A DNA stretch of 64,000 nt, taken from the NCBI GenBank assembly GCA_964291625.2, contig OZ220089.1:4256001-4320000 (forward strand), written 5' to 3'. Source of the stretch: Candidatus Latescibacterota bacterium (GTDB lineage: Bacteria; Latescibacterota; UBA2968; UBA8231). The notes under the pieces are model-generated. The model was not told where the DNA came from, searched no databases, and was given only the letters and a program-made list of their open reading frames with translations. A program made the position numbers and the translations under genes. Positions 23,049 to 40,136 of this stretch are shown piece after piece. Position 1 is the first letter of the stretch, and each line of letters opens with the position of its first letter.

Positions 23049-23072
23049 GGAGTGACAAGAGACGGAGGAGTC

Positions 23073-23831
23073 ATGGAAACAGAAGAGTGGACCGGGGAGA
23101 GGCTCGCCCAGGTCAGCGCGGGGCTCGAGACCGCTCATCCCCGGGAGATCATGGCCTGGGCCCTCGACAACTTCCATCCGGACATCGTCCTCGCCTGCAG
23201 CTTCGGCGGCGTCTCCGGCATGGTCCTGCTCGACATGGCCATGAAGAGCGACCGGTCCGTGCCGGTCTTCTACGTGGACACCGGTTTCCTGTTCACGGAG
23301 ACCCACGCCCTCAAGGACGAAGCCGCGCGCCGCTACGGGTTCCTTCCCCTGGCCTTCCGGCCCGACCTGTCCGTCGAGCAGCAGGCCGTCCTGCACGGAC
23401 CGGAGCTGTGGAAGGCCGACCCCGATCTCTGCTGCGAGGTCCGCAAGGTCGGTCCCAACCGGCGCGCTCTCGAAGGCAGGCGCGCATGGATCGCCGGGCT
23501 GCGCCGCGACCAGGGCGAAACCCGCCGCGACGTTGCCATCGTCGCCTGGGACACGAAATTCGACCTCGTCAAGATCAACCCCCTGGCAGCGTGGACCGAG
23601 GACGATGTGTGGAACTACGTCCGCGAGAACGACGTGCCCTACAACAACCTCCACGACCGCGGGTATCCGAGCATCGGCTGCGTCCACTGCACGCGCGCCG
23701 TCAGGCCCGGGGAAGATCCGCGGGCCGGCCGTTGGTCGGGCGGGGACAAGGTGGAGTGCGGCCTCCACACCGGCCCCGAGGGCCGGCCGAGGCAACTCCA
23801 TCACATCGAAGAACTGACGAAAGGAGCGTGA
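23073..23831 (+). CDS. cysH: APS/PAPS reductase (Fe-S type)
   Basis: VDTG, CCEVRK, GLRRDQ, KINPL, YPSIGCVHCT, RAGRW, ECGLH. SD GGAGG. Confidence 0.96.
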   Translation: METEEWTGERLAQVSAGLETAHPREIMAWALDNFHPDIVLACSFGGVSGMVLLDMAMKSDRSVPVFYVDTGFLFTETHALKDEAARRYGFLPLAFRPDLSVEQQAVLHGPELWKADPDLCCEVRKVGPNRRALEGRRAWIAGLRRDQGETRRDVAIVAWDTKFDLVKINPLAAWTEDDVWNYVRENDVPYNNLHDRGYPSIGCVHCTRAVRPGEDPRAGRWSGGDKVECGLHTGPEGRPRQLHHIEELTKGA

Positions 23832-23834
23832 TTC

Positions 23835-24404
23835 TTGGACCACAAGGGAGTGACCATCTGGTTCACCGGGCTGTCAGGCGCGGGCAAGAGCACGATCGCG
23901 GAACGGCTGGTGGCGTTCCTGCGGGAGCGGGGCCTGAAGACCGAGTTGCTCGACGGCGACGTGGTTCGCACGAACCTCAGCAAGGGGCTGGGATTCAGCA
24001 AGGAGGACCGGGACACCAACATCCGCCGCATCGGGTTCGTCAGCCAGCTGCTGACGCGCAACGGCGTCGTCAGCATCGTCTCGGCCATCTCGCCGTATCG
24101 CGAGGTGCGCGACGAGGTGCGCCGCGAGATCGGCAGCTTCATCGAGATTCACGTCCACGCCTCCCTCGACGAGCTGGTGCGGCGTGACGTCAAGGGTCTC
24201 TACGAGAAGGCCCTCAAGGGAGAGATCCCCAACTTCACCGGCGTCTCCGACCCTTACGAGGAGCCGCTGAACCCCGACGTCTTCCTCGACACGGAGCAGG
24301 AGAGCATCGACGAGAGCCTCGCCAAGGTGGTGGACGCCCTGGAGACGCGGGGCCTGATCCCGTCGGGCGCCGCGAGCCAGCCGGTGGAGGAAGCCGCCCG
24401 ATGA
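23835..24404 (+). CDS. cysC: Adenylyl-sulfate kinase
   Basis: WFTGLSGAGKST, LDGDVVR, DVKGLY, FTGVSDPYEEP. Confidence 0.97.
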   Translation: MDHKGVTIWFTGLSGAGKSTIAERLVAFLRERGLKTELLDGDVVRTNLSKGLGFSKEDRDTNIRRIGFVSQLLTRNGVVSIVSAISPYREVRDEVRREIGSFIEIHVHASLDELVRRDVKGLYEKALKGEIPNFTGVSDPYEEPLNPDVFLDTEQESIDESLAKVVDALETRGLIPSGAASQPVEEAAR

Positions 24405-25558
24405 CGATCCCCATCGCACCCCACGGCGGCGAGCTCATCAACCGTCTGGCCTCCACCGCGGAGGCGGAGGAGATCCACGCCCGCGCCGGCGGCCTGCCCC
24501 GCCTCACCCTCTCTCTCCGCGAGTCCGCCGACCTCGACCTCATCGCCGTCGGCGCTATGAGCCCCCTTGCCGGCTTCATGGACCGCGCCGACTACCAGCG
24601 CACCGTGGGCGAGATGCGCCTTGCCGACGGCACCCTCTGGAGCCTGCCCATCACCCTGTCCGCGCCGCCGGAGGCCGCCGCCGCCCTCGGCGCCGGCAGC
24701 GAGGCGGCCCTGCACGACGCCGCGGGACGGCTCGTGGGAGTCATCGCGGTCGACGAGGTCTACCCGTACGACAAGCAGGCCGAGGCGCGGAGCGTCTTCG
24801 GAACGGATGACGAGGACCACCCCGGCGTCGCCTCCGTCTACCGACAGCACGACCTGCTCGTAGGCGGCGCCGTCACCGTCGTCGAGCGCGAGGAGTTGGA
24901 GGAGGTCCTGCGGCCCTACCGGCAGGATCCGTCCGAGACCCGCGCCGCCTTCGCCGAGCGGGAGTGGCGGACGATCGTCGGGTTTCAGACGCGGAACCCG
25001 GTACACCGGGCCCACGAGTACATCCAGAAGGCGGCCCTGGAGATCGTCGACGGCCTGCTGCTGCACCCCCTCGTGGGCGAGACCAAGCCCGACGACATCC
25101 CCGCCGACGTGCGCATGCGCTGCTACGAGGCGCTGCTGGAGGGCTACTATCCGGCCGGCCACGTGCATCTCTCGGTGCTGCCCGCGGCCATGCGCTACGC
25201 CGGCCCCAAGGAGGCGATCTTCCACGCGCTCCTCCGCAAGAACTACGGCTGCACCCACTTCATCGTGGGGCGCGACCACGCCGGCGTCGGGTCGTACTAC
25301 GGCACCTACGAGGCGCAGGACCTGCTGCGCAGCGTGCCGCCCGCCGACCTCGGCATCACCCCCCTGTTCTTCGATCACTCCTTCTACTGCAGGCGCTGCG
25401 AGGGCATGGCCTCCATGAAGACCTGCCCCCACGGGCCGGAGGACCGGGTGATCCTCAGCGGCACGCAGGTGCGCGACATGCTGGCCGCCGGACAGGTGCC
25501 GCCCATGGAGTTCACGCGGCCGGAGGTGGCGCGGATCCTGATCGAGGCCGCGGCGTAG
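24401..25558 (+). CDS. sat: Sulfate adenylyltransferase
   Basis: PHGG.L, FQTRNPVHRAHEY, MRYAGPKEA, FIVGRDHAGVG, SGT.VR. Confidence 0.97.
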   Translation: MTIPIAPHGGELINRLASTAEAEEIHARAGGLPRLTLSLRESADLDLIAVGAMSPLAGFMDRADYQRTVGEMRLADGTLWSLPITLSAPPEAAAALGAGSEAALHDAAGRLVGVIAVDEVYPYDKQAEARSVFGTDDEDHPGVASVYRQHDLLVGGAVTVVEREELEEVLRPYRQDPSETRAAFAEREWRTIVGFQTRNPVHRAHEYIQKAALEIVDGLLLHPLVGETKPDDIPADVRMRCYEALLEGYYPAGHVHLSVLPAAMRYAGPKEAIFHALLRKNYGCTHFIVGRDHAGVGSYYGTYEAQDLLRSVPPADLGITPLFFDHSFYCRRCEGMASMKTCPHGPEDRVILSGTQVRDMLAAGQVPPMEFTRPEVARILIEAAA

Positions 25559-31997: not shown

Positions 31998-33188
31998 TCA
32001 GCGGCGCCAGCCCTCGCCGGGCATGATGCGGCGCATGAACTGGTCGAAGAGGGGGACCGTGAAGGCGGTGTCGCCGTGGCCGGGGCTCCAGATCATGCCC
32101 TTCGAGATCAGTTGGGCCCTCGCCGGCCCGAGGGAGGTGACCTTGAGACCCAAGGCCCGCGCGATGTCCCCCGAGCGATGCGGGCCGGGCCCCAGCTCCG
32201 ACATGGCCCTCAGGTACCTCTTTTCCGAGGTGGTCAGGCGGTCGAACCGCACCCGGAAGAAGCCCTCGTCCAGAGCGGCGACGACTACGTTCGAGGCGCG
32301 CTCGACGTCGGCGATCCCGATCGACGGGCCCGCCGCCACATCCCAGGAGTGCTTCCCCCACTCCTGAAGGAAGTACGGGTACCCGTGAGTCTCCTGAACG
32401 ATGCGCTCCAGGGCGTCATCGTCGATGGTCACGCCTTCATCCTCGGCCGGCTTGACGATGGCCGTTCGGGCCGCCTCGGCTCCGAGCGGTCCGACCCGTG
32501 GAAAGTCGAACAACCTCTCGGCGTATGACTTCGCCCTTCCGGTGCGGGCCCGGAGCTGCGGCAGGCCGGCTCCGACCATGACGACGGGCAACCGCCGCTG
32601 GGCGGTCAGGTGCAGGGAGATGATCAGCGCCGCCAGCTCCTCCTCGTCGACGTACTGGAGCTCGTCGACGAACAGGGACAGCGCCGTCTCCGCCTCCCTG
32701 GCCGCAAGACCGGCGGCCTCCAGCAACGCCTGCAGATCCATCTCGAGGTCGCCATTGTCGGCCAGGCCCGGCTCCGGCTCGAGATCGAGCCCCACCTCGA
32801 TGTCCTGGTACTTCACCTTGAGAGCGGCGGCGAAGCCCGCCAGGCCCCTGAGCGCCCTGAGAGCGAGACCCTTCGCCTTCTCGTTGTTGGACAACTGGAG
32901 CAGCGCCTGCCTCAACTGGGGAGCCAGCAGGGCGGGGAGAGAGCGATTATCCGGCGCCTCGACGGACAAGGTGCGGATACCGGCTGCCTGCGCGTCCACG
33001 CGCATGCTCTCGAGCAGCACGGTCTTGCCGACCCCCCTCAGGCCGACCATGAGAAGGCTCTTGGCCGGCCGGCCGAGTCTGATCCTGGCCAGCGCCACAC
33101 GGACGCTCTGGCGCAGGTCGTCCCGGCCTGCCAGCTGGGGCGGAGGCGTGCCGGCCCCGGGAGCGTAGGGGTTCCTGATCGGATCCAT
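31998..33188 (-). CDS. AAA-type ATP-binding protein with C-terminal winged helix
   Basis: NPYAPGAG.PP..LAGR, GLRGVGKT, VDELQ, GYPYFLQ, R.QLI.KG. Confidence 0.88.
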   Translation of the reverse strand: MDPIRNPYAPGAGTPPPQLAGRDDLRQSVRVALARIRLGRPAKSLLMVGLRGVGKTVLLESMRVDAQAAGIRTLSVEAPDNRSLPALLAPQLRQALLQLSNNEKAKGLALRALRGLAGFAAALKVKYQDIEVGLDLEPEPGLADNGDLEMDLQALLEAAGLAAREAETALSLFVDELQYVDEEELAALIISLHLTAQRRLPVVMVGAGLPQLRARTGRAKSYAERLFDFPRVGPLGAEAARTAIVKPAEDEGVTIDDDALERIVQETHGYPYFLQEWGKHSWDVAAGPSIGIADVERASNVVVAALDEGFFRVRFDRLTTSEKRYLRAMSELGPGPHRSGDIARALGLKVTSLGPARAQLISKGMIWSPGHGDTAFTVPLFDQFMRRIMPGEGWRR

Positions 33189-33196
33189 GGCCGCCG

Positions 33197-33235
33197 ATTA
33201 TGGGGAGTTTAGGCGATTATGTCAATATTATGTCA
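33197..33235 (-). promoter_or_regulatory. Near-consensus promoter of the ATPase gene with direct repeats
   Basis: Minus strand TTGACA(33225-33220)-N17-CATAAT(33202-33197). ATTATGTCA repeated at 33216 and 33227. Confidence 0.65.
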
Positions 33236-33384
33236 TAACCAAAATTTTGCTAACTTCCCCCAAACTACCGGCCACAGGGAGGTGCGCCGCGTCCCTGGAG
33301 TCCCCGGAGACCCGCCCCCGCAGGAACCGCCCCTGGTTGCGGAACGTCGGCTGGCCGGGCATATTGGCCGTGAACGGAGCCGAG

Positions 33385-33762
33385 ATGAGAATCCCCCGAG
33401 CCATCGCGCTGGCAGTGCTCGTCGCGGCGCTGCCGGCCAGCAGCGTCGCCGCCGCGGCGGACTGCTCGCCGTGCGCGCTGGCGGTGGCGGCCCCCGGCTG
33501 CCACGCGCCCGCGGCGGCTGACTCCGAGCAGCTCCGGTCCGCCTGCTGCTGCGCCGCCCTGAGCTGCGCCGACGATTCCCGACCTTCCGCCGATCCCGCT
33601 CCAACCTGGCTGCCCTCCGGCCCCGGGACCTCCGCCACCCCTCCCGCGGGCCCGCCGGTCCAGGCCCTCCGCGCCGCGGACCACGAGCCTGTCGCACCAG
33701 GGCCCCCGCCCCGGGCCGCCAAGGTCCCCCTCTACGCGCTCCACGGCATCTACCTGATCTGA
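33385..33762 (+). CDS. Secreted Cys-rich upstream ORF, putative metal-sensing leader (CruR/CutF-like)
   Basis: 125 aa: signal peptide, CSPC, GCH, CCC..C, Pro-rich tail GPPP, C-terminal PLYALHGIYLI*. Confidence 0.7.
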   Translation: MRIPRAIALAVLVAALPASSVAAAADCSPCALAVAAPGCHAPAAADSEQLRSACCCAALSCADDSRPSADPAPTWLPSGPGTSATPPAGPPVQALRAADHEPVAPGPPPRAAKVPLYALHGIYLI

Positions 33763-33903
33763 TCCTTCTCCGCTCTCGCCGCGCCCGCGGGCACGGCGCA
33801 GAGCCGCATCGAGCGATGCGCTGGCCGGGCCGGCCCCTCAGGGCCAGGCCGCGTGGCCGCGCATGTTGCGTACCGGTCCGACGCCGGAAACAGGAGAAGG
33901 AGA

Positions 33904-35163
33904 ATGCACCGGAGAGCTATCTGCGCCGCGGTCGTGGCCCTGGCCGCCGCGGCGCCCGCGGAACCCCCTGAGCTGGACCTCGACCTCCTGATCGAGGAGG
34001 CCCTCACCTCGAACCTGTCGCTGCAGGTGCTGAAGCACGGCTCTGCCGCCGCCCGGTCGGCGGTCCCGGCGGCCGGGGCCCTGCCCGACCCGGGGCTGAA
34101 GGTCGAGCTGAGCAACGTCCCCTTCCGCCCCCTCGACATCGACGGCTCGCCCATGAGCGGCCGCCAGCTCATGCTCTCCCAGAAGCTGCCCTACCCGGGG
34201 AAGCGGGCGGCCCGGGAGCGCGCCGCCTCCCACGCGGCGGCCGCCGCCGAGGCCGCCCGCCAGGAGCGCGAGGCGACCGTCGTCAACCTGGTGAAGCAGG
34301 CCTGGTTCGACCTGGATCTCCTCGACCGCTCGATCGCCATCACCGGGAGGAACCGGGACCTGCTGCGGGACTTCGTGCGCATCGCCCGGACGAAGTACTC
34401 CGTGGGGCGGGTGCCGCAGCAGGATGTGCTCAAGGCCCAGGTGTCCCTGTCGAGCCTGCGCCGGCGCCTGCTGCACATGGAGGGGGAGCGGCGGCGGACG
34501 GCGGCGCGGCTCAACACCCTGCTGGACCGGGATCCCCGCGAGCCGGTGGGCCGCATCCCGGCCCGGGAGCAGACGCCCCTGGAGTTCGAGGCGGTCCGGC
34601 TGCTGGAGCTGGCCCTGGACGGGCGGCCCCTGCTCGAGGGCCTGCGCCTGGGCCGGGAGCGCTGGCGCGCCGCCGAGGAGCTGGCCGTCCTCGACCGGCG
34701 GCCCGACTTCCAGGTGAACGCCGGCTGGCGCCAGCGCGGCTTCGAGGACGATCCCGTCTCGGGCAGCGACTTCTTCTCCGTGGGGGTGATGATGACCCTG
34801 CCCGTCTACAAGGGGCGCAAGCAGGATTCCCGGATCGCCGAGGCGAGGGCGCGGGTCCGGGAGGCCGAGGCCCGCATCGAGGCCGAGATCCGCGAGCTGG
34901 CGCTGCGGATCGAGGAGCTCCACGTCGACGCCGAGACCCACCTGCGGGAGATGGCCCTCTTCCGGGACGTCATCATCCCCCAGGCCGACCAGTCCCTGGC
35001 CGCGGCGGTCGCCGGCTACCAGGTGGACGAGGTCGACTTCCTCACCCTCCTCGACAACCAGATGACCCTGCTGGAGTTCGAGATCGACTACCATCGCCAC
35101 CTGTCGCAGTACGAGAAGAGCCTGGCCCACCTCGAGTCCGTCGTCGGCCGGCGGCTCTTCTGA
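33904..35163 (+). CDS. TolC-family outer-membrane factor (CusC-like)
   Basis: Signal peptide, AGALPDP, SQKLPYPGK, Y..G.V.QQDVLKAQ, Y....VDFLTLLD. Confidence 0.92.
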   Translation: MHRRAICAAVVALAAAAPAEPPELDLDLLIEEALTSNLSLQVLKHGSAAARSAVPAAGALPDPGLKVELSNVPFRPLDIDGSPMSGRQLMLSQKLPYPGKRAARERAASHAAAAAEAARQEREATVVNLVKQAWFDLDLLDRSIAITGRNRDLLRDFVRIARTKYSVGRVPQQDVLKAQVSLSSLRRRLLHMEGERRRTAARLNTLLDRDPREPVGRIPAREQTPLEFEAVRLLELALDGRPLLEGLRLGRERWRAAEELAVLDRRPDFQVNAGWRQRGFEDDPVSGSDFFSVGVMMTLPVYKGRKQDSRIAEARARVREAEARIEAEIRELALRIEELHVDAETHLREMALFRDVIIPQADQSLAAAVAGYQVDEVDFLTLLDNQMTLLEFEIDYHRHLSQYEKSLAHLESVVGRRLF

Positions 35164-35179
35164 GCGCGGAGGAAAGACC

Positions 35180-36550
35180 ATGTGGAAATACGCGATCGCC
35201 GTGATCCTGTCCCTGGCCGCCGGCACCGCCTTCGGCCTCTGGCTGGGCGGCGCCGGCGCGGGGGCGGGAGCGATGCACGCCCACCAGGAAGAGGCCGACG
35301 TCCACCGCTGCCCCATGCACCCCACCGTCGTCTCCGAGGGGCCGGGAAGCTGCCCGGTCTGCGGCATGGACCTGGTGGCCGACGAGCCGGCGCCGAGCAG
35401 CGCCTCCGGCGGGGAGCGCGCCGTCGCCTACTGGCGGGCGCCGATGGACCCGTCGTACACCTCCCACGAGCCGGGCCAATCGCCCATGGGCATGGACCTG
35501 GTGCCGGTCTACGAGGACGAGCTGCAGGCCGAGGGCACGGTGACGATCGACCCGGCGACGGTGCAGAACATCGGCGTCAGGACGGCGCCGGTGGAGCGCC
35601 GGCCCCTGCACCGCACGGTGCGCACCGTGGGCCGCGTCGACTACGACGAGACGCGCATGACCGACGTCAACACCAAGATCGCCGGCTGGGTGGAGCAGCT
35701 CTTCGTCGACTACACGGGTCAGATGGTGGAGAAGGGGGAGCCCCTGCTGCAGATCTTCAGCCCGGAGCTGGTGGCCGCCCAGGAGGAGTACCTCACCGCC
35801 GTCGACTACAGCGAGCGCCTGATGGCCGGCGGCGGGGGCGAGGTCGTGACCGGGGCCCGGGACCTGCTGTCGGCGGCGCTGCAGCGGCTGCGCTACTGGG
35901 ACATCAGCGACCGCCAGATCGAGGAGCTGCGGCAGACGGGGGAGGCGCGGCGCACCATGACCGTGCACTCGCCCCAGCAGGGCACGGTGGTCCACAAGGC
36001 GGTCCTCGACGGCCAGCACATCGGCCCGGGGCAGCACCTCTACCGCATCGCCGAGCTGTCGCGGGTGTGGGTCTACGCCGACGTCTACGAGTACGAGCTG
36101 CCGTGGGTGCGGGAAGGGCAGGAGGCCGAGGTCGAGCTCTCCTACCTGCCGGGCCGGACCTTCACCGGCAAGGTCACCTACGTCTATCCCTTCCTCGAGC
36201 CGGAGACGCGGACCGTCAAGGTGCGCATGAGCTTCGCCAACCCCGAGCTGGAGCTGAAGCCGGAGATGTACGCCAACGTCACCATCCGCTCGCCCCTGCC
36301 GGCCGACAGCGTCCTCACGGTCCCGGTGCAGGCGGTGATCCACTCCGGTCCGCGCCGACTGGCCGTGATCAGCCTCGGCGAGGGCCGCTTCCAGCCCCGG
36401 GAGATCCGCGTCGGCGCCGAGGCGGAGGGCTTCTACGAGGTCCTGGAGGGCCTGCGTGAAGGGGAGCGGATCGTCACCTCGGCCCAGTTCCTCATCGACT
36501 CGGAGAGCAACCTGAAGGCGGCGGTCAGCTCCCTGGGGGAGGGGACGTGA
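35180..36550 (+). CDS. cusB: Heavy-metal RND periplasmic adaptor
   Basis: CPMHP...CPVCGMDL, APMDP...SPMGMDLVP, SPELVAAQEEYL, LKPEMY, FLIDSES. Confidence 0.92.
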   Translation: MWKYAIAVILSLAAGTAFGLWLGGAGAGAGAMHAHQEEADVHRCPMHPTVVSEGPGSCPVCGMDLVADEPAPSSASGGERAVAYWRAPMDPSYTSHEPGQSPMGMDLVPVYEDELQAEGTVTIDPATVQNIGVRTAPVERRPLHRTVRTVGRVDYDETRMTDVNTKIAGWVEQLFVDYTGQMVEKGEPLLQIFSPELVAAQEEYLTAVDYSERLMAGGGGEVVTGARDLLSAALQRLRYWDISDRQIEELRQTGEARRTMTVHSPQQGTVVHKAVLDGQHIGPGQHLYRIAELSRVWVYADVYEYELPWVREGQEAEVELSYLPGRTFTGKVTYVYPFLEPETRTVKVRMSFANPELELKPEMYANVTIRSPLPADSVLTVPVQAVIHSGPRRLAVISLGEGRFQPREIRVGAEAEGFYEVLEGLREGERIVTSAQFLIDSESNLKAAVSSLGEGT

Positions 36551-39500
36551 TGATCGGGCGCATCATCGAGGCCTGCGTCAACAACAAGCTGCTCACGGTG
36601 CTGGTGACCCTGCTGGCCGCCGGCGCCGGCTTCCTCGCCATGTCCGACACCCCCCTCGACGCCATCCCCGACCTGTCGGACGTGCAGGTGATCGTCCTTA
36701 CCGAGTACCCGGGGCAGGCGCCCCAGGTGGTGGAGGACCAGGTGACCTTCCCCCTGAGCACGGCGATGCTGGCCGTGCCCTACGCCAAGGCGGTGCGGGG
36801 GTACTCCTTCTTCGGCCTCTCCTTCGTCTACGTCATCTTCGAGGACGGCACCGACATGTACTGGGCGAGGAGCCGCGTCCTCGAGTACCTCAGCTTCGCC
36901 GGCGACCGCCTCCCCGAGGGGGTGCAGCCGCGGCTCGGTCCCGACGCCACCGGCGTCGGCTGGGTCTACGAGTACGCCCTCGTCGACACCAGCGGCCGCC
37001 GCGACCTCGCCGAGCTGCGCTCGATCCAGGACTGGTACCTGCGCTACGAGCTGACCAGCGTGCCCGGCGTCGCCGAGGTGGCCAGCATCGGCGGCTTCGT
37101 CAAGCAGTACCAGGTGACGGTCGACCCCAACAAGCTGCTGGCCTACGGGGTCTCGCTGCAGCAGGTGAAACGCGCCATCCAGCGCAGCAACAACGACGTC
37201 GGCGGCCGCCTCATCGAGCTGGCCGAGACCGAGTTCATGGTGCGCGGCCTCGGCTACATCCGTTCCGTCGAGGACATCCGCGAGGTGCCCGTGAGCGCCG
37301 GCCGCTCCGGCACCCCGGTGCGGGTGCGGGACATCGCCACCGTGCAGGTGGGGCCCGAGCTGCGCCGCGGCCTGGCGGAGTGGAACGGCGAGGGGGAGGT
37401 GGCCGGCGGCATCGTGGTCATGCGCTACGGCGAGAACGCCCTGGCCGTGATCGACGCCGTCAAGGCGAGGCTCGCCGAGCTGCAGGACGGCCTGCCGGAA
37501 GGGGTGGTGGTGGAGACCGCCTACGACCGCTCCGGCCTCATCCGCCGCGCCGTGGGCCACCTGCGCGAGAAGCTGGTGGAGGAGTGCCTGGTGGTGGCCG
37601 CCGTCTGCGGGCTCTTCCTGCTCCACTTCCGCAGCGCCTTCGCCGCCGTCTTCACCCTGCCCCTGGGCATCCTCGTCGCCTTCATCGTCATGTGGGGCCA
37701 GGGGATCAACGCCAACATCATGTCCCTCGGGGGGATCGCCATCGCCGTGGGGGCCATGGTCGACGCCGGTATCGTGCAGATCGAGAACGCCCACCGCCAC
37801 CTGGCGCGGGACCGGGGCCGCAAGGACCACTGGGCGATCATCGCCGCCGCCTCCAAGGAGGTGGGGCCGGCCCTGTTCTTCTCCCTCCTCATCGTCACCC
37901 TCTCCTTCCTGCCCGTCTTCACCCTGGAGGCCCAGGAAGGGCGGCTCTTCAAGCCCCTGGCCTACACCAAGACCTACGCCATGGCCGCCGCGGCCCTGCT
38001 GTCGATCACGGTGGTGCCCGTGCTCATCGGCTTCTGCCTGAAGGGGCGGGTCGTCGACGCCGACCGCAATCCGCTCAACCGGGTTCTGACGCGGGGCTAC
38101 GGGCCGGTCCTGGACTGGCTGCTGCGCCACAAGGCCGCCACCCTGGCCGCCGCCGCGGCGGTGATGTTCGTGTCGGTGTTTCCCTTCCGCAGCGTGGTGG
38201 TGGAGCGCTTCGCCGAGCGGCCCGGCAGCCTGGCGCACACGGCGCTGTCCCGCCTGCAGGGGCTCTTTCCCCTGGAGCAGATCGGCTCGGAGTTCATGCC
38301 GCCCCTGTACGAGGGGGACCTGCTCTACATGCCGACCACCCTGCCCGGGGTCTCGGTGACCAAGGCGCGGGAGCTGCTGCAGCAGACCGACCGCATCATC
38401 CGCACCTTCCCGGAGGTGGAGAACGTCTTCGGCAAGATCGGCCGCGCCGAGACCGCCACCGACCCGGCGCCCCTGTCGATGATCGAGACCACCATCACCC
38501 TGAAGCCGCAGGACCAGTGGCGGCCGGGCATGACCCCGCAGAAACTGGTGGAGGAGCTGGACCGGGCGGTGCGCTTCCCGGGGCTGACCAACGCCTGGAC
38601 GATGCCGATCAAGACGCGCATCGACATGCTCTCCACCGGCATCAAGACCCCCGTGGGCATCAAGGTAGCCGGCGACGATCTCGAGACGCTGGAGGAGGTG
38701 GGCCGGCGGATCGAGCAGGTGGTGCGGGAGATCCCGGGCACGGCCAGCGTCTACGCCGAGCGGGTCGCCGGCGGCAACTACGTCGACTTCGAGATCGACC
38801 GCGAGGAGGCCGGGCGCTACGGCCTGACGGTGGGGGACGTGCAGGAGGTGATCCTGTCGGCCATGGGCGGCATGAACATCACCCACACCGTGGAGGGCCG
38901 CGAGCGCTACCCGGTGAACCTGCGCTACGGGCGGGAGCTGCGCGACAACCTGCCCGCCCTGAGGCGGGTCCTGGTGGCCACGTCCACGGGGGCCCAGATC
39001 CCCATCGGGCAGGTCGCCGACCTGCGCATCCGCAAGGGGCCGCCCGGCATCAAGAGCGAGAACGCCCGCCTCAACGCCTGGGTCTACGTCGACATCCGCG
39101 ACGTCGACGTGGGCACCTACGTCGAGCGCGCCCGCCAGATCGTGGCCGAACGGATCGACCTGCCCCAGGGATACAGCCTGATCTGGAGCGGCCAGTACGA
39201 GTACATGGAGAGGGCCAAGGAGCGGCTGAGCCTCGTCGTGCCGGTCACCCTGGCCATCATCTTCCTGCTCCTCTTCCTCCACTTCCGCAGCGTCGTGGAG
39301 AGCCTCATCGTCATGCTCACCCTGCCCTTCGCCCTGGTGGGCGGGATCTGGCTCATCTACATCCTGGACTACAACATGAGCGTCGCCGTGGGCGTGGGTT
39401 TCATCGCCCTCGCCGGGGTCAGCGCCGAGCTCGGGGTGGTGATGCTCACCTACCTCGACCAGGCCCTGGAGGCCCGCCGCACCGAAGGCCGGCTCGAGGA

Positions 39501-39798
39501 CCGGGCCGATCTCGCCGCCGCCATCGTCGAGGGGGCGTCCCGGCGCGTGCGCCCGATCTTCATGACCGTGGGTTCGACGGTGGGCGGTCTGCTGCCGATC
39601 ATGTGGGCCACGGGCGCCGGGTCGCAGGTGATGAAGCGGATCGCCGCGCCCATGGTGGGCGGGCTGGCGACGGCTACACTTCTGGCGCTGCTGGTGTTGC
39701 CGGCCGTATATGCGCTGTGGCGTGGTTTCCAGATGCGCGGCGGCACGGAACCGACAACGGATGCACACACCCCCGAGGAAGGAGTGACAGCAGCATGA
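36547..39798 (+). CDS. cusA: CusA Cu(I)/Ag(I) RND permease
   Basis: DAIPDLSDVQV, LGPDATGVGWVY, EFMPPL.EGDLLYMP, DPAPLSMIET, PIKTRIDML, MKRIAAPMVGG. Confidence 0.97.
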   Translation: MMIGRIIEACVNNKLLTVLVTLLAAGAGFLAMSDTPLDAIPDLSDVQVIVLTEYPGQAPQVVEDQVTFPLSTAMLAVPYAKAVRGYSFFGLSFVYVIFEDGTDMYWARSRVLEYLSFAGDRLPEGVQPRLGPDATGVGWVYEYALVDTSGRRDLAELRSIQDWYLRYELTSVPGVAEVASIGGFVKQYQVTVDPNKLLAYGVSLQQVKRAIQRSNNDVGGRLIELAETEFMVRGLGYIRSVEDIREVPVSAGRSGTPVRVRDIATVQVGPELRRGLAEWNGEGEVAGGIVVMRYGENALAVIDAVKARLAELQDGLPEGVVVETAYDRSGLIRRAVGHLREKLVEECLVVAAVCGLFLLHFRSAFAAVFTLPLGILVAFIVMWGQGINANIMSLGGIAIAVGAMVDAGIVQIENAHRHLARDRGRKDHWAIIAAASKEVGPALFFSLLIVTLSFLPVFTLEAQEGRLFKPLAYTKTYAMAAAALLSITVVPVLIGFCLKGRVVDADRNPLNRVLTRGYGPVLDWLLRHKAATLAAAAAVMFVSVFPFRSVVVERFAERPGSLAHTALSRLQGLFPLEQIGSEFMPPLYEGDLLYMPTTLPGVSVTKARELLQQTDRIIRTFPEVENVFGKIGRAETATDPAPLSMIETTITLKPQDQWRPGMTPQKLVEELDRAVRFPGLTNAWTMPIKTRIDMLSTGIKTPVGIKVAGDDLETLEEVGRRIEQVVREIPGTASVYAERVAGGNYVDFEIDREEAGRYGLTVGDVQEVILSAMGGMNITHTVEGRERYPVNLRYGRELRDNLPALRRVLVATSTGAQIPIGQVADLRIRKGPPGIKSENARLNAWVYVDIRDVDVGTYVERARQIVAERIDLPQGYSLIWSGQYEYMERAKERLSLVVPVTLAIIFLLLFLHFRSVVESLIVMLTLPFALVGGIWLIYILDYNMSVAVGVGFIALAGVSAELGVVMLTYLDQALEARRTEGRLEDRADLAAAIVEGASRRVRPIFMTVGSTVGGLLPIMWATGAGSQVMKRIAAPMVGGLATATLLALLVLPAVYALWRGFQMRGGTEPTTDAHTPEEGVTAA

Positions 39799-40136
39799 AA
39801 CGCCTGAAGACCCGAGGGAAAGCCGTCATCGCCGTTGCGGCGGTCGCTGCGGTCCTGGCCGTCGGCGGCTATTTCCTGCAGGGAGAGAGCCAGCCGCCTC
39901 CCCTGCCCGCGGACGGACTCGCCCTCTACCAGACCTTGCTGAGGGAGATCCCGGAGGTTGTGAGCCAGGTGCCGTGCGCCTGCTGCAACCAGAGTCTCTC
40001 CTGGTGCTACGAGGGAGGGTGTCCCCCCACCTGACGGCAGTGCAACGAAGAGGGCCGTGACGCCTTCAAGTGGCACCACGAGGGAAAGGACATCGAGGAG
40101 ATCAAGGAGCTGATCCTGGCGAAGTACTTCCATTGA
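39795..40136 (+). CDS. Probable selenoprotein (UGA at codon 80, UxxC), PCYCGC-like membrane-anchored protein, 113 aa
   Basis: ATGA overlap with cusA, TM anchor, PCACC...WCY...CPPT-UGA-RQCNEEGRDAFKWHHEGKDIEEIKELILAKYFH*. Read-through ends 17 nt before copA. Confidence 0.78.
40035..40080 (+). promoter_or_regulatory. SECIS-like hairpin
   Basis: GUGC..GAGGGC-[CGUGAC]-GCCUUC..GCAC directly 3' of the UGA; loop 21 nt from the UGA with G at loop position 2 followed by U. Confidence 0.62.

Follow-up and report, generated by a model that had tools for sequence, protein, structure and literature searches.

What controls translation of a heavy-metal efflux operon whose first gene is preceded by a short open reading frame for a cysteine-rich and apparently secreted protein? 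The question is raised by a locus within 64,000 nucleotides of genomic DNA from a Candidatus Latescibacterota bacterium (hereafter, the window), in which an upstream open reading frame (uORF) is followed by genes resembling cusC, cusB and cusA. The original prediction, made from the letters of the DNA, was that a ribosome pausing at the end of the uORF frees the ribosome-binding site of cusC and that copper tunes the pause. Here we follow that prediction through the protein, the RNA and the operon. The features that we refer to are collected in Table 1.

Table 1. Features of the uORF-cusCBA locus, in coordinates of the window
Feature	Position	Strand	Details
Candidate conserved promoter block	33323..33365	+	Upstream of the uORF; two readings
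uORF Shine-Dalgarno (SD) core GGAG	33376..33379	+	5 nt before the uORF ATG
uORF	33385-33762	+	ATG 33385 to TGA 33760-62; 125 aa
Predicted export signal, uORF codons 1-25	33385..33459	+	MRIPR, hydrophobic AIALAVLVAAL, PASSVAAAA
Putative metal-binding Cys/His-rich segment, uORF codons 26-62	33460..33570	+	C27xxC30, C39H40, C54C55C56, C61
Pro-rich linker, uORF codons 63-113	33571..33723	+	Sequence variable, length fixed
Conserved tail and stop, candidate arrest peptide	33724..33762	+	uORF codons 114-125 (VPLYALHGIYLI) plus TGA
Anti-SD TCCTTCTCC	33763..33771	+	Directly after the uORF stop; pairs with 33893-901
Structured insert	33772..33892	+	Between the arms of the anti-SD:SD helix; several GC-rich hairpins
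cusC SD stretch GGAGAAGGA	33893..33901	+	First GGAG 7 nt before the ATG
cusC-like outer-membrane factor gene	33904..35163	+	PF02321 OEP/TolC family, E 7.7e-49
cusB-like periplasmic adaptor gene	35180..36550	+	PF16576, HlyD_D23 3.4e-84; N-terminal HMBD 5e-18
cusA-like RND pump gene	36547..39798	+	TIGR00914, 1224 bits; start overlaps cusB stop

The uORF encodes a cysteine-rich protein with a conserved C-terminal end

The GC content at third codon positions of the uORF is 0.88, the highest of the three positions. Its product has 24 homologues of matching length, and the indels that separate the uORF loci are whole codons. Because of these three coding signatures, we conclude that the uORF is a real gene. 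The 125-residue frame and the residues that the original prediction had picked out were all found in the sequence where it had placed them, namely the ligand motifs CSPC (C27, C30), GCH (C39, H40), CCC (54-56) and C61, a proline-rich stretch (14 of the 51 residues from 63 to 113, counted by eye) and the C-terminal end PLYALHGIYLI. The Sec signal that it had also proposed stands as a predicted pattern: the n-h-c arrangement is present, the hydrophobic core has a mean Kyte-Doolittle value of 3.03, and AF2 placed a helix at residues 4-14. Residues 1-22 are mostly invariant among the 24 close homologues, and 29 of the 31 members of the uORF family contain an 11-residue window whose hydrophobicity exceeds 2.0.

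We examined how each segment of the product is conserved across these 31 proteins. The CxxC motif occurs in 30, the exception (P0030) being N-terminally short, the CH motif in 29, and a CCC-type cluster in every one. The linker could not be aligned among distant relatives, and AF2 gave no structure for residues 63-113. The distance from the last cysteine to the C-terminus nevertheless falls between 62 and 67 residues in all 31 members and is exactly 64 in 21 of them; in P0034 a 10-residue insertion lies N-terminal of the CCC cluster and thus outside this spacer. At the exact C-terminus, the motif PL[YFH]xL[HKN]xx[YF]L[IL] is present in 29/31 members, and it is kept even in relatives with 27-39% identity whose linkers cannot be aligned, so that the conservation expected for this end was indeed observed. 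Eight loci were available as DNA. Among them the conserved tail residues carried synonymous changes only (P115 CCC/CCG, L116 CTC/CTT, L124 CTG/TTG), and the stop codon was TGA at all eight. Estimates of dN/dS by uORF segment ranged from 0.46 to 0.77, values that do not strongly single out the tail and that come from a GC3-biased genome. The product as a whole evolves much faster than the pump, with 49-81% identity among loci compared with 89-97% for CusA.

Our searches linked the family to no described one. All 31 members are shorter than 150 residues, and our search for longer or fused forms found none, which is weak evidence. Pfam and NCBIfam profiles, CusF included, gave no match to the uORF product; for the CusF metallochaperone (PF11604) there was neither a Pfam match nor an AF2 fold. 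AF2 predicted no fold for the whole product either (pLDDT 54.9, pTM 0.14), from an alignment that was shallow at 30 sequences. A search of a plasmid collection returned no relatives of P0001 or P0028. The nearest clusters in the ESM Atlas are unnamed hypothetical proteins, with DUF8199, DUF6769 and DUF6660 as leads of low value. Literature searches on stalling and copper, on DUF2946 together with CusC, and on leader peptides, anti-SD sequences and efflux yielded no description of the uORF family; File S1 of PMC9973294 lay outside this comparison.

The uORF heads a CusCBA operon

The best solved relative of the cusA-like pump is E. coli CusA (1252 bits, vs 532 bits for ZneA), and methionine is kept at three aligned columns of the pump. 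We take these columns to be the Cu(I)/Ag(I) site M573/M623/M672. The cusB-like gene also matched the CusB model NF007303 (2.8e-59), under the cutoff of that model. Judging by these profile and alignment scores, the downstream genes are a CusCBA heavy-metal RND efflux system whose pump is closer to CusA than to the divalent-cation pumps. The order uORF-cusC-cusB-cusA is kept at 7/7 loci as far as the DNA runs. Positions 33904-39798 hold the C, B and A genes only, and we saw nothing resembling cusF there. A scan of 11 neighbouring genes found no CusRS, CueR or ECF gene. A copA gene and a gene for a CYCXC (seleno)protein adjoin the cusCBA locus.

The cusC start, ATGCACCG[G/A]AGA, is conserved at all eight loci. 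An alternative GTG start at 33853 was rejected, since indels affect this region and L003 has no such codon. We also rejected a read-through fusion of the uORF with CusC, which is in frame and free of stop codons here, because the intergenic length is a multiple of three at only three of the eight loci.

Upstream of the uORF, the conserved block can be read in two ways: as an ECF-like promoter, GGAAC (33323-27) N17 CGTC (33345-48), or as a sigma-70-like promoter, TTGCGG (33337-42) N17 CATATT (33360-65). The letters of both readings are invariant at the seven aligned loci, and sequence farther upstream could not be aligned. A promoter consensus scan called no plus-strand promoter upstream of the uORF. 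The SD of the uORF itself is weakly or partly conserved (GGAG at three of seven loci, GGAA at three, GGAT at one). We considered the TTATGTCA direct repeat at 33210-33245 as an OmpR-type box and rejected it: the repeat is better accounted for by the minus-strand TTGACA-17-CATAAT promoter of a divergent ATPase gene, and it is not conserved at four of seven loci.

The cusC SD is predicted to be clamped by the nucleotides that follow the uORF stop

The original prediction held that the nine nucleotides after the uORF stop are complementary to the cusC ribosome-binding site. The match is exact: TCCTTCTCC (33763-71) is the reverse complement of GGAGAAGGA (33893-901) over all nine nucleotides. By chance, 64 kb would hold 0.61 copies of the 9-mer, both strands counted, and here it was observed twice within 140 nt in complementary orientation. 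The minimum free energy (MFE) fold is closed by this helix (z = -2.48), and 2 of 200 shuffled sequences folded equally well. At each of the eight loci the anti-SD directly follows the uORF stop, and the predicted pair probability of anti-SD with SD lies between 0.85 and 1.0. Scored pair by pair over the eight loci, pairing holds in every one of the 72 cells. Covariation, which had been proposed as a check on the helix, is seen at one pair, UA at five loci and CG at three, a compensatory U:A to C:G change. It is limited to this pair and probably reflects a single evolutionary event, because L005-L007 form one group; all eight DNA loci belong to one narrow lineage. From these models, we conclude that nine base pairs between the SD of cusC and the nucleotides directly after the uORF stop keep this SD locked in free mRNA.

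The RNA enclosed by the helix behaves differently from its arms, which are invariant while the hairpins between them change, come and go. L003 lacks hairpin 1, L003 and L004 have an extra hairpin, and the distance between uORF and cusC varies from 121 to 160 nt. Searches of the intergenic insert found no Rfam match and no terminator-like site (a hairpin with a U run), and we rejected a known RNA family or a terminator as an account of it. Some MFE folds also paired the end of the uORF with the start of the cusC coding region, but the consensus did not keep this.

We modelled the cost of making the stretch from the SD to the AUG single-stranded. In free mRNA this cost was 6.2-16.3 kcal/mol across loci. 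With a ribosome five codons before the uORF stop it was 7.2-15.9 kcal/mol, and with a ribosome holding the stop codon in its A site it was 2.1-6.3 kcal/mol. In that last position the anti-SD lies at about +7 to +15 of the ribosome. Thus the claim that a ribosome at the uORF stop frees the cusC ribosome-binding site was borne out in silico, where only a ribosome at the stop lowered the cost. Against the switch stand the residual cost of 2-6 kcal/mol and the partial re-pairing of the SD with other partners, which the model showed at most loci when the anti-SD was blocked. We consider it very probable that the clamp exists and is opened by the ribosome that reaches the uORF stop.

The locus resembles known copper-responsive leader peptides and differs from them

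The likeness to CutF, CruR and SecM that had been drawn for this locus agrees with what the papers report. In CutF of Rhodobacter capsulatus, a Sec signal and a Cys motif are combined with a stalling motif at the C-terminus, and the anti-SD of a stem-loop covers the SD of cutO (PMC9973294; bioRxiv 10.1101/2025.02.05.636593); CutF-like genes most often precede OEP/CusC genes (PMC9973294). Like CutF, the uORF product has a predicted Sec-type signal, putatively periplasmic Cys ligands and a conserved C-terminal motif, and downstream an RNA helix is predicted in which an anti-SD shields the SD of the next gene, here also an OEP/CusC gene. The genomic setting is CutF-like as well: the uORF encodes fewer than 150 residues, stands first in a copper operon and is followed by a same-strand metal-homeostasis gene at a gap below 1000 nt (121-160 nt, 8/8 loci). 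By analogy, the expected logic would be the same, with copper causing more stalling and more stalling causing more translation of the detoxifying system.

The differences from CutF lie in the family and in the details of the switch. The filter for CutF-like proteins given in PMC9973294 includes PP within the last 15 residues. Only 1 of the 31 uORF family members has PP there, and with PP/PPP absent from the C-terminus the family therefore fails that filter. The PF11162 (DUF2946) profile, searched at E up to 10, matched none of the 25 members of alignment A1 and none of 6 distant relatives other than P0034, and P0001 had no match at E up to 0.1 against Pfam including DUF2946. The motif of the uORF product, PLYxLHxxYLI, stands directly before the stop, the product has seven cysteines instead of four, and the anti-SD abuts the stop and pairs across ~120 nt rather than within a local stem-loop.

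In Bordetella pertussis, copper relieves the arrest at CruR (Bp2923), which leads to Rho-dependent termination and turns an importer off, and the distance from CXXC to RAPP is conserved at about 45 residues (PMC9426467). Like CruR, the uORF product is small, apparently exported and equipped with CXXC, its gene heads a copper-related operon and is followed by a long GC-rich intergenic region, and the spacing between its metal motif and its C-terminal motif is conserved. Unlike CruR, the family has a spacer of its own length, SD occlusion is proposed where CruR has a Rho site, and the proposed target is an exporter. The family also lacks RAPP, RAGP and RGPP in all 31 members, in line with the earlier remark that no exact RAPP is present.

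Among arrest peptides more broadly, classes are on record in which the ribosome stalls while its A site holds the stop codon (NSP-stop, NAP-stop and DGMK-stop; PMC10987492), and the conserved motif of the uORF likewise abuts its stop codon. Compared with the arrest motifs described in the same paper (PMC10987492), the uORF tail has no RAPP-like, Pro-stop or Lys-stop element, and arrest here is a candidate property. By analogy with SecM-secA, the uORF would be an exported leader peptide whose stalled ribosome opens an SD-occluding structure; unlike SecM and the other Sec/YidC monitors (MifM, VemP, Apc/Apd and the RQH family), it precedes cusC and not secA, secDF or yidC. Translational coupling and attenuation by sequestration of an SD are classical, as in the erm leader peptides and the long-range pairing of phage MS2. 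The present locus is like these in that translation of an upstream ORF would melt the helix that hides a downstream SD. It is unlike them in that its leader is a 125-residue exported metal-ligand protein and the anti-SD falls exactly in the channel of the terminating ribosome.

A model for control of cusCBA translation by the uORF

We propose that the locus is a CutF-cutO-type cis translational switch, built from a separate protein family, that controls a CusCBA copper/silver efflux operon; for this statement as a whole, pause and copper tuning included, we see the chances as evenly balanced. A ribosome with the uORF stop in its A site, and no other, would hold the anti-SD in its mRNA channel (about +7 to +15). 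The terminating ribosome would thereby release the cusC SD and keep it close by. Since only a ribosome at the uORF stop would free the SD, cusC would be translated only after the uORF had been completed, and cusB and cusA would follow through close coupling.

The uORF product itself would be exported co-translationally. By the time the last codons are translated, the cluster of Cys and His ligands (residues 27-61) would already be in the periplasm, the linker of 62-67 residues would span the ribosome tunnel and the translocon, and the 12-residue tail would occupy the upper tunnel. The tail may then slow the last elongation steps or termination. Folding or disulfide formation in the exported cluster would pull on the chain and end the pause quickly, and bound Cu(I) would block folding or disulfide formation, giving a longer pause and more translation of cusCBA. 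We infer the pause and copper steps from analogy and from the conserved 62-67 residue spacer. A pause programmed by the peptide at the uORF end stands, in our estimate, at about even odds, and tuning of that pause by copper is somewhat doubtful.

A point against arrest is that the tail contains no Pro-Pro or RAPP-like element, and we know of no report of Ile-stop as a poor termination context. Seven cysteines are also more than CutF or CruR need, and would suit a genuine metal-binding protein as well. A CutF-like stall at the PPP of residues 107-109 was considered as the switch and rejected: these residues are encoded more than 40 nt ahead of the anti-SD, the PPP is not conserved, and the cost of opening the SD is not lowered by a ribosome placed five codons ahead of the stop. 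Only tentatively do we suggest that PLYxL[HKN]xx[YF]L[IL]-stop represents a new, proline-free class of arrest or termination pause that is independent of DUF2946, in which a ruler of 62-67 residues through the tunnel and SecYEG would make the nascent Cys cluster a transmembrane copper sensor read by the anti-SD.

Alternative explanations

Constitutive translational coupling accounts for the evidence on the clamp equally well, since any ribosome that terminates on the uORF opens the helix. In this reading the uORF would encode a stable, secreted, Cys-rich metal-binding protein, the pause would not be programmed and the nascent chain would not sense copper; the product would be a substitute for CusF or a metal buffer, its tail would dock on a pump subunit, and the clamp would enforce co-translation through every terminating ribosome. 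Seven cysteines plus histidine make a rich set of ligands for this role, the operon has no cusF-like gene that we could see, and no Pro-based arrest motif is present in the product. A stable protein is harder to reconcile with the lack of any Pfam or NCBIfam match, CusF included, with the lack of a predicted fold in AF2 and with an identity of 49-81% where CusA keeps 89-97%. Furthermore, a spacer of fixed length and free sequence is hard to square with a docking tail on a disordered linker, and CutF, the closest analogue, is reported to be undetectable in vivo and rapidly degraded (PMC9973294). We regard constitutive coupling as unlikely, though it deserves serious weight. That same reported rapid degradation of CutF after export (PMC9973294) suits another reading, in which a periplasmic PDZ protease of the Prc/CtpA or DegS/DegP type recognizes the hydrophobic C-terminus ([YF]-L-[IL]-COOH) as a tag, serving rapid turnover or envelope-stress signalling, and the clamp is a separate and simple coupling. 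In 30/31 family members the motif stands at the very C-terminal end, and the tail has the form hydrophobic-x-hydrophobic, which is that of PDZ ligands and of OMP-like YxF tails. Conservation, however, reaches back 11-12 residues (P115, L116, Y117, L119, H120), and PDZ ligands usually need fewer. A protease tag would also leave both the fixed 62-67 residue spacer and the anti-SD abutting the stop codon unexplained, and no protease gene is among the scanned neighbours; we consider this reading improbable.

It could also be argued that the intergenic RNA is the regulator itself, for example by binding a ligand or a protein, by governing mRNA stability or processing, or by serving as a Rho or terminator device as in CruR, and that the uORF is incidental. 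The stretch is long, GC-rich and structured (121-160 nt), and CruR does work by Rho-dependent termination in a 162-bp intergenic region (PMC9426467). Against this, the inner hairpins are gained and lost and are not conserved as those of an aptamer would be, the searches described above returned neither an Rfam family nor a terminator-like hairpin with a U run, and the region is not rut-like because it is highly paired and G-rich. Its invariant parts are the two arms only, one of which abuts the uORF stop at all eight loci. Of an RNA regulator acting without the uORF we think very little, and we retain the cis translational switch as our working model.

Implications for copper sensing by exported leader peptides

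To our knowledge, CutF and CruR, two DUF2946 proteins of Pseudomonadota with Pro-based motifs, are the only cases so far in which control by copper has been traced to a leader peptide during its synthesis and export. The locus described here would extend this logic to another phylum and to another sequence family. Three of its features lend themselves to direct tests: the 9-bp clamp, of which nature supplies a compensatory variant, the anti-SD beginning at the first base after the stop, and the spacer of fixed length. If the tail does arrest ribosomes, it would be a new arrest motif, and screens based on PP or RAPP motifs would miss whole families of sensors. The switch would also offer a way for a cusCBA operon that lacks a neighbouring two-component or MerR regulator to respond to copper in the periplasm. 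Finally, if the proline-free arrest class is true, sensing of the CutF type would be a convergent design principle and not the trait of one family.

A conserved Cys-rich gene precedes cusC

The original prediction described a 125-aa Cys-rich ORF ahead of cusC (hereafter uORF), with a Pro-rich part and a given C-terminus, and the window sequence agrees with this description. The uORF product begins MRIPRAIALAVLVAALPASSVAAAA and ends VPLYALHGIYLI, and its ligands are, in order, C27-S-P-C30, C39-H40, C54-C55-C56 and C61, followed by the Pro-rich stretch. The window has a G+C content of 70%; GC3 of uORF was 0.88 in the proposed frame, exceeding the G+C of its other two codon positions, and GC3 of cusCBA was higher (0.96-0.97). 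Searching 5.8 billion proteins by a word index identified 24 relatives (48-96% identity), almost all of them 125-128 aa long. None of the 24 had a Pfam domain, and their sole source name was 'hypothetical protein [Gemmatimonadaceae bacterium]'. Among 1.84 billion cluster representatives, a profile search gave nine matches, six of them distant relatives (27-39% identity), and a second profile search added one further relative, P0034. Searches for longer, fused forms found none, which is weak evidence.

Family counts were made on 31 proteins, leaving out the truncated P0026 (69 aa). We found CxxC in 30/31, CH in 29/31 and a CCC-type cluster in every protein. Conservation of the C-terminus had been proposed as a comparative check, and PL[YFH]xL[HKN]xx[YF]L[IL] stands at the exact C-terminus of 29 of the 31. 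Between the last Cys and this tail the sequence is unalignable among distant members, but the length is fixed: in every one of the 31 proteins the last Cys is 62-67 aa from the C-terminus, the value being exactly 64 for 21 of them. P0034 has a 10-aa repeat insertion N-terminal of the CCC cluster, and its spacer is still 64. For the uORF product, AF2 with a 30-sequence alignment predicted no fold (mean pLDDT 54.9, pTM 0.14), giving only a signal helix (residues 4-14) and a turn (116-119). Taken together, the sequence comparisons lead us to conclude that uORF is a real, conserved gene.

Features of the window
Feature	Position	Strand	Remark
Sulfate-assimilation cluster	23052-25558	+	PAPS reductase, APS kinase, ATP sulfurylase; ~8 kb upstream
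AAA_16/STAND-type ATPase gene	31998-33188	-	divergent
TTGACA-17-CATAAT promoter	33197-33225	-	near-consensus sigma-70-like, 11/12 match
uORF promoter block	33323-33365	+	~45 nt
uORF	ATG 33385 to TGA 33760-62	+	125 aa
Anti-SD	33763-71		TCCTTCTCC
cusC SD	33893-901		GGAGAAGGA
cusC start ATG	33904	+	just downstream of GGAGAAGGA
cusC		+	OEP, PF02321
cusB		+	CusB-type adaptor, N-terminal heavy-metal-binding domain
cusA		+	CusA/CzcA-family pump, downstream of cusB
79-aa ORF and extension	39795-40136	+	membrane-anchored, PCACC...CPPT; TGA at 40032-34 and 40134-36
631-aa ORF	42452-44347	+	directly after copA

The cusC Shine-Dalgarno stretch is predicted to pair with bases after the uORF stop

An exact 9-nt complement between the bases after the uORF stop and the cusC ribosome-binding site had been claimed, and we recovered it: the nine bases after the stop (anti-SD) are the exact reverse complement of the cusC Shine-Dalgarno stretch (SD). 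On both strands of the 64-kb window this 9-mer is expected 0.61 times and was observed three times, two copies being the complementary pair 130 nt apart. In the minimum free energy fold of 33740-33930 (-98.1 kcal/mol, z = -2.48; 2/200 shuffles fold as well), the two arms pair with each other as the helix that closes a domain of several hairpins.

The DNA evidence is all drawn from eight closely related loci: the window and seven others, here given L numbers, from one scan of species-representative genomes, in MAGs titled Gemmatimonadaceae or 'Candidatus Latescibacterota'. In all eight, the uORF stop is TGA with TCCT[T/C]CTCC immediately after it, and CAGGAG[A/G]AGGA lies ahead of the cusC ATG. 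Where the anti-SD arm of L005-L007 has C in place of T, the SD arm has G in place of A. Standard pairs fill 72/72 cells of the nine-pair helix; eight pairs never vary, and the ninth is UA in five loci and CG in three. Pair probabilities were 0.85-1.0 when each sequence was folded singly. The proposed anti-SD/SD covariation therefore held as pairing in 8/8 loci and a single compensatory column, probably one event, which is supportive, short of conclusive. The enclosed 100-140 nt are variable: the first hairpin is missing from L003, one hairpin is added in L003 and L004, and the intergenic length ranges from 121 to 160 nt. Conserved arms around a variable insert point to a clamp in which the arms count and the insert would be mere scaffold, rather than to a ligand-binding aptamer. 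The intergenic RNA had no Rfam match and no terminator-like site. In the window, uORF and cusC are in frame across 33763-33903 with the uORF TGA as the only stop; this is not conserved, the intergenic length being a multiple of three in 3/8 loci.

A ribosome at the uORF stop would free the cusC SD

The ribosome encloses mRNA as far as about +15, counted from the first base of the P site, and its helicase acts near +11; for this helicase the CutF preprint cites Takyar et al. 2005. When Ile125 occupies the P site and UGA the A site, the stretch enclosed at +7 to +15 therefore coincides exactly with the anti-SD. We modelled opening by forbidding pairing up to the ribosome edge and calculating what it costs to render the stretch from the cusC SD to AUG single-stranded. 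This cost was 6.2-16.3 kcal/mol in free mRNA, 2.1-6.3 kcal/mol with a ribosome at the uORF stop, and 7.2-15.9 kcal/mol with a ribosome five codons before it. Because the modelled cost falls at the stop but not five codons earlier, only completion of uORF would free the SD. In the model the freed SD does not open completely: it re-pairs weakly elsewhere in most loci. Since the cusC stop and the cusB start are 17 nt apart and the cusB stop is overlapped by cusA, one switch could set the whole CusCBA pump.

Gene neighborhood and promoters

The order uORF, cusC, cusB, cusA was found in all seven loci, as far as the DNA reaches. Compared with solved relatives, the window pump scored best against E. 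coli CusA (1252 bits; the divalent-cation pump ZneA scored 532 bits), and Met is kept at the three aligned columns that correspond to the Cu(I)/Ag(I) site. Downstream of cusA are a small CYCXC-type gene and then copA. No CusRS, CueR or ECF regulator was present among 11 further neighbor genes scanned. In the three more distant loci, L005 (6795-6983), L006 (6798-6992) and L007 (6792-7394), 190-600 nt lie between the cusC and cusB matches, as opposed to 17 nt in the window, and this stretch may hold an extra small gene or element. By its GC3 of 0.94 the 631-aa ORF carries a strong coding signal, and relaxing E to 1 still gave it no Pfam match. The sulfate-assimilation cluster is unrelated to the uORF-cusC finding.

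The promoter block upstream of uORF is invariant in 7/7 loci and can be read in two overlapping ways, as ECF-like GGAAC-N17-CGTC or as sigma-70-like TTGCGG-N17-CATATT; the latter, if used, would leave a uORF leader of only about 13 nt. The minus-strand promoter is immediately upstream of the ATPase gene, with a very short predicted leader, and the TTATGTCA direct repeat is its plus-strand appearance.

Between cusA and copA, the frame of the 79-aa ORF stays open beyond its first TGA to the second. Decoding the first TGA as selenocysteine gives a product of 113 aa, for which NCBIfam NF041379 'CYCXC family (seleno)protein' is a match with E 9.3e-10 and 38.5 bits, less than the cutoff of 90 bits. 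The match spans this TGA, which is probably a recoded UGA giving CPPT-U-RQC. The hairpin after it was no better than shuffles (z = -0.73), and the 64-kb window has no tRNA-Sec.

A proposed mechanism and its alternatives

We propose that the clamp would hold the cusC SD until a ribosome arriving at the uORF stop opens it. The conserved 12-residue tail, then in the upper exit tunnel, would slow the last steps. The spacer has the order of length needed to cross tunnel and translocon, which would put the Cys cluster just inside the periplasm when the ribosome reaches the uORF end. Copper bound there would do away with the pull exerted by folding or disulfide formation, lengthening the pause. A tail pause with a copper-prolonged stall is the model published for CutF, in the available text of those reports (PMC9973294; bioRxiv 10.1101/2025.02.05.636593). 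The original interpretation passes its comparative tests, the C-terminal motif and the pairing, while its stalling and copper steps stay proposals.

The RNA evidence fits equally well a constitutive coupling of cusC to uORF product acting as a functional periplasmic metal protein, a reading also favored by the rich Cys set and by a family without the Pro motif. A spacer of fixed length but free sequence speaks against such coupling, as does a protein that evolves fast and has no predicted fold. Less likely are a C-terminus serving as a protease tag and an intergenic region acting as an autonomous RNA element.

In the available text of PMC9973294, OEP/CusC genes are the most frequent downstream neighbor of CutF-like genes, so the general arrangement is already known. 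Like CutF/DUF2946, the uORF family is small, has an export signal, CxxC and an SD-shielding helix, and stands first in a copper operon. DUF2946 is defined, in the text available, by CXXC together with a C-terminal RAPP, the conserved distance between them being about 45 aa (PMC9426467), and the CutF-like list by PP within the last 15 residues (PMC9973294). In contrast, the DUF2946 Pfam profile matched 0/31 uORF family members at E up to 10 (25 aligned members and six distant relatives), RAPP, as in CruR, occurs in 0/31, and PP in the last 15 residues in 1/31. Among arrest peptides that stall with a stop codon in the A site, NSP-stop, NAP-stop and DGMK-stop, as listed in the accessible part of PMC10987492, do not resemble the uORF family tail. 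We found no published description of the family in the literature searched, which excludes the supplementary list of CutF-like proteins. From the features shared and those lacking, present evidence suggests a CutF-like mode of action for the uORF family, which should nevertheless not be classed under DUF2946, and we consider the finding of moderate to high interest for researchers of arrest peptides and metal homeostasis.
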